This document shows positions 7,095 through 7,577 of a stretch of DNA of 64,000 nt, piece after piece. Below the pieces are notes generated by a model that saw only the letters and a program-made list of their open reading frames with translations, had not been told where the DNA came from and made no database searches. Origin of the DNA: Escherichia coli (GTDB lineage Bacteria; Pseudomonadota; Gammaproteobacteria; Enterobacterales; Enterobacteriaceae); the NCBI RefSeq assembly GCF_002854065.1, contig NZ_CP024147.1. One strand, 5' to 3'. The position numbers and the translations under genes were made by a program. Each line of letters starts with the position of its first letter. Within the stretch, counting starts at the first letter, position 1.

Positions 7095-7217
7095 CATCCC
7101 CCTTAGCCCGGAAAAATAAGAAAAGTGCTCATGAGTTTTGAGCACTTCGTTCCGGTTCAGTATGAACGTCCTCCGTTATTATGCCATCACAATGTAAACC
7201 TAAAGGTTGACAAAAAG

Positions 7218-7577
7218 ATGGTGAAAAATCAGACTAACAAAAAACGTGATAAAAATCTTCCAGTCATGCTGTTAAGTGTGGCCAGAAAGGAATTGTTTGA
7301 TCTTAGTGCAATCGATCGAGCGGAATTCATTGCTGCTATTGACGATTTCGAAGAGTTAGGTCCCTGCTCTTCCCTGGTGAATACCGAAAAAGTTCAAGGG
7401 GATATGTATGAAATTAAAACACATAGTCAGAGCCATTGGTTAAGGGGTTTTTATTTTCACTTTCATCAAGGGCTATGGGTCATCACACATATCTTTGCTA
7501 AAAAAACGAACAAAACGCCTAAAGCCAACATCGAGTTAGGTTTAGCACGTTATAAGGCCTTACTTTCGACAAACTAA
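7218..7577 (+). CDS. Gp49-like / HigB-like type II toxin candidate (start uncertain: 7125, 7218 or 7266)
   Basis: C-terminal core ...DMYEIKTHSQSHWLRGFYFHFHQGLWVITHIFAKKTNKTPKANIELGLARYKAL matches the conserved ...ELR...R..Y......I.L.H.F.KK.QKTP..E...A..Y motif of Gp49-family toxins; followed 23 bp later by an HTH antitoxin-like gene. Confidence 0.6.
   Translation: MVKNQTNKKRDKNLPVMLLSVARKELFDLSAIDRAEFIAAIDDFEELGPCSSLVNTEKVQGDMYEIKTHSQSHWLRGFYFHFHQGLWVITHIFAKKTNKTPKANIELGLARYKALLSTN

Follow-up and report, generated by a model that had tools for sequence, protein, structure and literature searches.

A probable ATG 7218 start for a Gp49/HigB-type toxin of Escherichia coli, with a basic N-terminal tail and putative regulatory DNA upstream

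The toxin gene of a chromosomal toxin-antitoxin (TA) module of Escherichia coli, located in the 64,000-nucleotide stretch of contig NZ_CP024147.1 that was analysed here (hereinafter, the window), probably starts at ATG 7218 and, on that call, specifies a RelE-fold toxin of the Gp49/HigB type that is 119 aa long (7218..7577, plus strand). The choice is not trivial: the open frame runs, as had been reported in a preliminary description of this DNA, from GTG 7125 to the TAA codon at 7575-7577 (7125..7577, plus strand; 150 aa) and includes in-frame ATG codons at 7131, 7218 and 7266; all coordinates given in that description proved correct. The ambiguity is real inasmuch as identical loci are held in public databases at three protein lengths, namely, 148 aa (294 contigs), 119 aa (207 + 215 + further contigs) and 103 aa (1 contig), the RefSeq/PGAP start being ATG 7131 (148 aa). 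In the scenario that we favour, the toxin would be translated from ATG 7218 and followed by an Xre-type helix-turn-helix (HTH) antitoxin (7601-7903). The 93 nt before 7218 would act as regulatory DNA comprising a hairpin after the agaI gene, a weak candidate promoter, and an operator that contains the hexamer TTGACA. Residues 1-16 of the protein (MVKNQTNKKRDKNLPV) would form a basic, largely disordered tail whose final L-P-V opens the first beta-strand (beta1), with ATG 7266 as an internal Met codon.

Much of the evidence for this start comes from homologs in other genera; the loci compared number 20 (the genome scan gave five loci and the metagenome scan one). The Lys/Asn-rich leader (7218..7265, plus strand), which appears to lead as a disordered basic tail into the first half of beta1, recurs in homologs from Pseudocitrobacter, Yersinia, Erwinia, Pantoea, Klebsiella sp. 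and Sodalis, and seven homologs start exactly at the residue equivalent to ATG 7218. An [F/Y]-P-[V/I] motif just before residue 48 of the 150-aa frame recurs across the subfamily (L-P-V in the window) while being written in changing codons, Pro by CCA, CCT, CCC and CCG, and Val by GTC, GTT, GTG and GTA. The entropies at the first, second and third codon positions are 0.43/0.31/1.39 for this motif, 0.87/0.82/1.39 for the nine codons preceding residue 48, and 0.75/0.46/1.39 for the toxin core. Since this codon-position pattern is like that of the core, the codons before residue 48 appear to have been translated over evolutionary time. Besides the far-upstream pair, GTG 7125 and ATG 7131, which we exclude below, the only in-frame starts that precede the motif in E. 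coli are ATG 7218 and the adjacent GTG 7221. Hybridization with the 3' end of 16S rRNA gives -3.6 kcal/mol for ATG 7218, marginally the best value among the five toxin start candidates; the values are -3.5 kcal/mol for GTG 7125 (at 11-nt spacing), -1.5 kcal/mol for ATG 7131, and +0.6 kcal/mol for ATG 7266, which has no Shine-Dalgarno element. The earlier suggestion of a lineage-specific extension is apt for residues 32-47 (7218-7265), the Lys/Arg-rich tail, except that this tail is common to the Enterobacterales subfamily rather than peculiar to E. coli.

What, then, is the status of ATG 7266 (7266..7268, plus strand)? This codon specifies residue 48 of the long frame and residue 17 of the 119-aa form, and we judge it to be an internal Met in the middle of beta1, with a possible role as a start on transcripts from the candidate promoter P2 discussed below. 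At the corresponding position, Yersinia, Klebsiella sp. and Sodalis have AGG, Pantoea has AAA, and Pseudocitrobacter has GTG; with Arg or Lys encoded in four genera, a start at this codon is impossible there. In distant Gp49 proteins (105-125 aa), the first strand, 'xWxV-xFY', aligns onto L-P-V-M-L-L. The AlphaFold2 model of the 119-aa form places beta1 at residues 16-18, with a predicted pLDDT of about 54 for residues 1-10 and about 88 for residues 11-20. The conserved core had been placed near residue 48 of the long frame, which needs adjustment: residues 45-47 already open beta1 and the [F/Y]-P-[V/I] motif, and residue 48 lies inside the strand. The related remark that 103 aa is a typical toxin size does not hold, as the family members measure 105-125 aa and none of them lacks the half-strand of beta1 that would be missing from a product of ATG 7266.

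By profile, fold and conserved residues, the toxin belongs to the Gp49 family. The Pfam profile Gp49 (PF05973) matches residues 55-144 of the 150-aa frame over its entire length (positions 1-90 of 90) with E = 1e-20 and 74 bits, as compared to the gathering score of 23.9. The AlphaFold2 model of the 119-aa form (mean pLDDT 88) is predicted to consist of strands and helices in the order E16-18, H20-28, H31-47, E55-60, E63-69, E74-82, E86-95 and H102-118; the modelled arrangement, in which an antiparallel sheet that includes an N-terminal strand is combined with two helices and a helix at the C-terminus, is that of a RelE-type fold. The best Foldseek matches are Streptococcus pneumoniae HigB (6af4) and Mycobacterium tuberculosis HigB1 (7awk/7nbu), with probability 1.00. 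All nearly invariant columns of the family, G48, E65, R76, F93, K95, K96 and P101, are present in the query. In HigB1, the key residues are E66, R68, R77, F93, K95 and K99, of which K95 is catalytic (PMC9098466); the residue correspondence to HigB1 was made by eye on the alignment of the PDB sequences. The toxin-first order also fits, with an HTH_3 ORF (open reading frame) 23 nt downstream of the toxin and the same pairing wherever downstream DNA was examined. The subfamily is narrow: among 1.84 billion representatives, only two clusters at 50% identity had E < 1e-10.

The DNA immediately upstream of ATG 7218 contains an inverted repeat, GTAAACC-TAAA-GGTTGAC (7194..7211), which is the probable operator of the HTH antitoxin. 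A zero-mismatch search of the 64-kb window with GTAAACC-N4-GGTTGAC returns this copy alone, and an equivalent repeat is found upstream of the toxin in 20 of the 20 homologous loci. The TTGACA at 7207-7212, the coordinates of which were given correctly in the preliminary description as lying inside the longer versions of the protein, belongs to the right arm of this palindrome and, at the same time, is the -35 element of P2, the best-scoring promoter candidate. By the pattern of autoregulated type II TA operons, the antitoxin would bind this palindrome; the sequence-level indications are that the repeat is kept in all 20 loci and that its right arm coincides with the best -35 element. Natural variants of the right arm (window 7205-7209) occur in the E. 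coli proteins P0091/P0093. One of these has Tyr for Asp in the upstream frame, from which a G7209T change would follow that makes the palindrome perfect (GGTTTAC, as in locus L007) and weakens the -35 element to TTTACA; the other has Ile for Val, as would result from a change of GGTTGAC to GATTGAC.

The 20 loci fall into two layouts. In layout A (six loci: Klebsiella sp., Sodalis, a Pantoea conjugative element, L016, L020 and L018), the repeat usually reads AAAGTCAACC-N4-GGTTGACTTT; in five loci its 10-bp arms form a perfect palindrome, and in the sixth, Sodalis, there is a single arm mismatch. The right arm, TTGACT, is followed after 15-17 nt by TATACT, TATCAT, TATGCT, TATCTT or TAACAT and then, beyond this -10 element, by a 5' untranslated region (5'UTR) of about 35-50 nt, a start codon, and the homologous basic leader. 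As read from these motifs, layout A is a canonical promoter that is overlapped by the operator and lies upstream of the leader start. In layout B (the window and 13 other loci), the repeat stands directly upstream of the ATG, which is located 21 or 24 nt from the first repeat base in all 14 loci; between subclades this distance changes by precisely one codon without any indel, and in 8 of the 14 the ATG following the repeat is in frame. Two of the layout A loci reside in or near mobile elements, L013 in a region of Pantoea resembling an integrative and conjugative element and L018 beside an integrase. The layout B loci of known context (the window, L004, L009, L014 and L015) are chromosomal and downstream of a co-directional gene, the upstream neighbour being agaI, an aldolase gene, an MFS transporter gene or, in Yersinia, an ORF of 660-670 aa.

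The 31 upstream codons of the 150-aa frame (7125..7217, plus strand) appear to be non-coding and open by chance. Residues 1-31 are not covered by any homolog outside Escherichia, neither in the genera listed above nor in the metagenomes (55-85% identity), and in five loci from other taxa, including Pseudocitrobacter, L017, Yersinia pestis and L015, a TAG or TAA stands in frame three to four codons before the equivalent of ATG 7218. Two E. coli lineages, the window and OZ197100, were also compared: 7125-7217 shows 10 differences in 93 nt (about 11%), with six of the nine changed codons non-synonymous, as against a single difference in the leader, none in the 312 nt of the core (7266-7577), and about 1.5% in agaI and rsmI. 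E. coli protein variants display the same contrast between a divergent upstream stretch and a constant core. The RNA fold of 7095-7270 has z = -3.8, and a terminator scan detects a hairpin with a 9-10 bp stem (7122..7148) that encloses both GTG 7125 and ATG 7131 and is also seen in L007, L021 and L022. The T-run of this hairpin is on the minus strand only, which makes it terminator-like for leftward transcription (antisense from rsmI, or of the LysR gene in the alternative arrangement described below) and not for agaI. Because no T-run follows the hairpin on the plus strand, read-through from the aga operon is possible. The stretch 7125-7217, with its hairpin, weak candidate promoter and palindrome, is almost certainly regulatory DNA and not protein. 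The earlier notion of an untranslated leader is appropriate for this part (residues 1-31).

The candidate promoter within this stretch, P1 (7156..7182, plus strand), would combine TTCAGT (7156-7161) with TATTAT (7177-7182) across 15 nt; with a putative transcription start near 7189, its transcripts would include ATG 7218. The score is 6.0 with a self-made sigma-70 matrix that is approximate, its values being indicative only. Within the agaI-linked clade, as well as in L017, L023 and L015, a TAnnnT hexamer recurs 17-19 nt upstream of the palindrome. Other routes to expression of ATG 7218 were considered and rejected, namely, a leaderless mRNA beginning at 7218, a -10 element in the palindrome spacer, and an extended -10 element (TGTAAACCT), each being a poor match or not conserved in relatives.

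How do the other possible starts compare with ATG 7218? That the long form is real, i.e. that translation from ATG 7131 (148 aa) or GTG 7125 (150 aa) yields an Escherichia-specific N-terminal extension with the predicted peptide SFEHFVPVQYER, we consider extremely improbable. The upstream frame is, indeed, open in every Escherichia copy seen, and PGAP calls the 148-aa form, but this proposition has to cope with the lack of coverage by homologs and the in-frame stops in other genera, with a neutral-like divergence next to zero change in the core, and with the sequestration of both start codons in a stable hairpin; furthermore, translation would have to pass through the operator palindrome, and the same DNA is kept unannotated in 33 genomes that are devoid of the toxin. 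A start at ATG 7266 is a more serious contender. Here the product made would be the 103-aa form, alone or alongside the antitoxin, P2 transcripts would rarely or never include 7218, and the leader codons would belong to the promoter and the 5'UTR, with an ancestral frame preserved in them. Several observations weigh against ATG 7218, those on P2 and on the frameshifts also in this direction. The Shine-Dalgarno-like AAAGG that had been noticed upstream of ATG 7218 (7202..7206, plus strand) is present as described, with 11 nt in between, yet it is weak and the spacing is long. Upstream of 7218 in E. coli, neither a consensus sigma-70 scan, which found no promoter in 7000-8000, nor our own matrix yielded a convincing one. 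P2, in which TTGACA is followed after 17 nt by the -10-like CAGACT (7230..7235, plus strand), scores 11.6 versus 6.0 for the upstream candidate, and the right repeat arm serves as the -35 element of the top-scoring candidate in 13 of the 13 loci scored. The predicted P2 start (about 7241-7243) lies, taking 7242, some 24 nt past ATG 7218. The P2 geometry is kept in all 14 layout B loci: a hexamer 16-18 nt from TTGACA (TTTACA in L007), whose second base is always A and whose sixth is always T (CAGACT, CAAACT, CAAAAT, GAGAAT or CAGAAT). The final T is invariant despite being a third codon position, and the corresponding leader hexamers in three layout A loci end in A or G. Finally, 6 of the 14 layout B loci have a frameshift in the leader. 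In five of these (one E. coli strain and four lineages outside E. coli), the shift falls within a poly-A run, and all five retain the ATG at residue 48 together with an intact core ORF. The single indel between L021 and L022 in 1376 nt falls at an A-run, which argues against an assembly error. Against the start at 7266 stand the [F/Y]-P-[V/I] codons just upstream of it, which show a clear coding pattern within layout B, and Y. pestis, where residue 48 is AGG and no other start codon is available downstream. That every layout B locus has an ATG after the palindrome, displaced by precisely one codon from subclade to subclade, is also at odds with this possibility, as are the loss of half of beta1 and an N-terminus that would be three residues shorter than that of any aligned family member. 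Besides the missing Shine-Dalgarno element, the predicted accessibility of ATG 7266 is lower, and the 103-aa call was made in only one of about 740 E. coli contigs. On balance, we regard a start at 7266 as unlikely.

The frameshifts and P2, considered jointly, may be read in three ways: the leader may be a mutational hot spot for toxin inactivation, the short form may be made, or the arrangement may resemble that of hicAB. In the last case, the toxin ATG of layout B would lie inside the spacer of an antitoxin-repressed promoter whose transcripts yield the antitoxin alone or else a toxin truncated at the N-terminus. Expression of the full-length toxin would then rely on a weak promoter farther upstream or on transcription reading through from the neighbouring operon (here, aga), and the poly-A runs would act as a frameshift-prone switch of both the toxin frame and the promoter spacer. 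We regard this composite picture as unlikely. The three A-runs (7224-7228, 7239-7244 and 7251-7255, plus strand) mark the positions where relatives carry indels. The E. coli locus L024 has A7 instead of A6 at 7239-7244, L023 has A7, and L007 is shifted at an A-run; L021 and L022 differ, over the 1376 nt, by 12 substitutions and by the indel just mentioned, the first A-run being A7 in L021 and A5 in L022, where A6 would be in frame. The sixth frameshift, in one strain of Yersinia alsatica, is right after the ATG, and other Y. alsatica copies are intact. The length of the first A-run also sets the spacer of TTGACA...CAGACT (16, 17 or 18 nt), and A-run changes recur independently as +1, -1 or 2-nt events. 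A further alternative is that the toxin is decaying or silent, a domesticated chromosomal remnant from which mainly the antitoxin is expressed, which would make the start question moot. In E. coli, the TAA indeed cuts off seven C-terminal codons (7575..7598, plus strand; next stop TAG 7596-7598) that are kept in sister Escherichia, where Lys replaces the TAA, KASLQEK is read, and the proteins end in ...LSTNKASLQEK. Moreover, every toxin start candidate has a weak ribosome-binding site, as opposed to the strong one of the antitoxin (AGGAG at 7588-7592, -7.4 kcal/mol), the leaders of relatives are often frameshifted, the deletion variant P0002 exists, and the module is absent from most E. coli genomes and replaced in 33 of them. 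This view is contradicted by the 119-aa ORF itself, which is intact and identical between E. coli lineages with flanking genes that differ by about 1.5%; by the presence of every residue that is nearly invariant in the family, the counterpart of the HigB1 catalytic K95 among them (PMC9098466); by a confidently predicted fold; and by the position of the lost tail beyond the Pfam domain and the last helix. Decay, which had been raised as a possibility at the outset, appears quite unlikely given an active site with all the family-invariant residues, the missing seven codons notwithstanding. A presumably active toxin initiated at ATG 7218 is the reading that we retain.

The partner gene (7601..7903, plus strand) encodes a 100-aa Xre-type protein (Pfam HTH_3, E = 4.7e-16), and an HTH-type ORF of 98-105 aa comes after the toxin in each locus whose downstream DNA was inspected. 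The TAG at 7596-7598 is 2 nt before the antitoxin ATG, so that the nonsense change in E. coli also removes a tight stop-to-start spacing. An exact-sequence look-up of the 106-aa sister-Escherichia forms (P0096) found no contig. In the E. coli-like P0002 (ENA, a 907-nt contig), a 90-nt in-frame deletion fuses the upstream frame to the toxin core; it takes away the right arm of the operator, ATG 7218 with the leader, beta1 and the beginning of helix 1.

At the level of the chromosome, the gene order is agaI (6327..7094, plus strand; co-directional, from the ORF list and the RefSeq annotation of identical DNA), toxin, HTH antitoxin, rsmI (7946-8809, minus strand) and lpoA. Of 5426 complete E. coli genomes, just 12 have the module at the agaI/rsmI site; in K-12, yraHIJK occupies this place and no relic of the module is left. 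In 33 complete E. coli genomes, a LysR regulator and an MBL-fold hydrolase occupy the position of the toxin-antitoxin pair. The replacement spans exactly from 7217 to about 25 nt before the antitoxin stop, leaving as relics the operator palindrome with TTGACA and the last approximately eight antitoxin codons. In these genomes, 122 nt equivalent to window 7095-7216 are retained without annotation and the homology ends at 7216/7217; in L002 (E. coli MB53), the two relics are found at 3095-3217 and about 5470-5516, corresponding to window 7095-7216 and about 7879-7945. The synteny agaI, toxin, HTH antitoxin, rsmI is shared by Pseudocitrobacter and other relatives, which, together with the antitoxin relic, implies that the module is old at this site and that the LysR/MBL segment replaced its coding part. 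The same two facts rule out the notion that the break at 7216/7217 delimits a backbone unrelated to the TA module; by its homology and context, the upstream flank in the LysR/MBL genomes is the module's own upstream region left as a relic. PADLOC, applied to the pair, gave weak partial matches only (NsnC for the toxin and the HTH part of RmrA for the antitoxin), with no evidence for a defence system.

The main value of these results is practical, a corrected annotation: the 119-aa protein is supported over the 148-aa RefSeq entry, whose 29 extra residues (31 in the 150-aa frame) would correspond to operator and hairpin DNA, and cloning or modelling from that entry would add a spurious N-terminus. 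More generally, they delineate a small Gp49/HigB subfamily whose basic N-terminal tail is conserved and whose promoter region comes in two layouts; in one of these, the toxin ATG lies between the -35 and -10 elements of a conserved promoter candidate. If P2 is active, this would be a second, independent case of the solution by which hicAB secures an excess of antitoxin in a toxin-first operon.

In the hicAB locus of E. coli (Turnbull & Gerdes 2017, as summarised in PMC11594946), an upstream promoter gives rise to an mRNA for toxin and antitoxin, and an antitoxin-repressed downstream promoter to an mRNA that yields the antitoxin only. The likeness would be one of mechanism only, the operator-overlapping candidate promoter of the present module being predicted to start past the toxin ATG at 7218, whereas the protein families are unrelated and the upstream promoter in E. 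coli is at best a weak candidate. The E. coli K-12 HigB/YgjN (PF09907; PMC11980606, Table 1) and the Vibrio HigB2 (PF06296) share with the window toxin the RelE/ParE fold and the toxin-first order, and HigB2 (5jaa) is matched by Foldseek with E = 4e-4; however, both belong to different Pfam families, and a PDB sequence search returned no significant match to either. A literature search on the Yersinia homolog turned up nothing usable on experimental work. The closest solved relatives, in sequence as well as in fold, are the Gp49 HigB proteins, M. tuberculosis HigB1/HigB-TAC (7awk, 7nbu) and S. pneumoniae HigB (6af3, 6af4), in which the fold beta1-alpha1-alpha2-beta2-beta3-beta4-alpha3 is alike and the toxin likewise comes first, with an Xre-HTH HigA antitoxin after it (PMC5906591, PMC11980606). 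The F-x-K...K-T-P-K motif of HigB1, with the catalytic K95, is conserved in the window toxin (PMC9098466). Members of the Gp49 family are described as ribosome-dependent mRNases encoded in the toxin-first order (PMC11980606, PMC5906591), and the window toxin should, by homology, be a ribosome-dependent mRNA endonuclease. It differs from the solved Gp49 HigBs in being only about 17-27% identical to them and in belonging to an Enterobacterales subfamily with a Lys/Arg-rich tail of about 12-18 residues before beta1. Since HigB1 of M. tuberculosis touches the 16S rRNA partly through its N-terminal region (PMC9098466), it is plausible that the basic tail adds a contact with the ribosome, at the 16S rRNA. 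The window toxin is an ordinary member of a known TA family.

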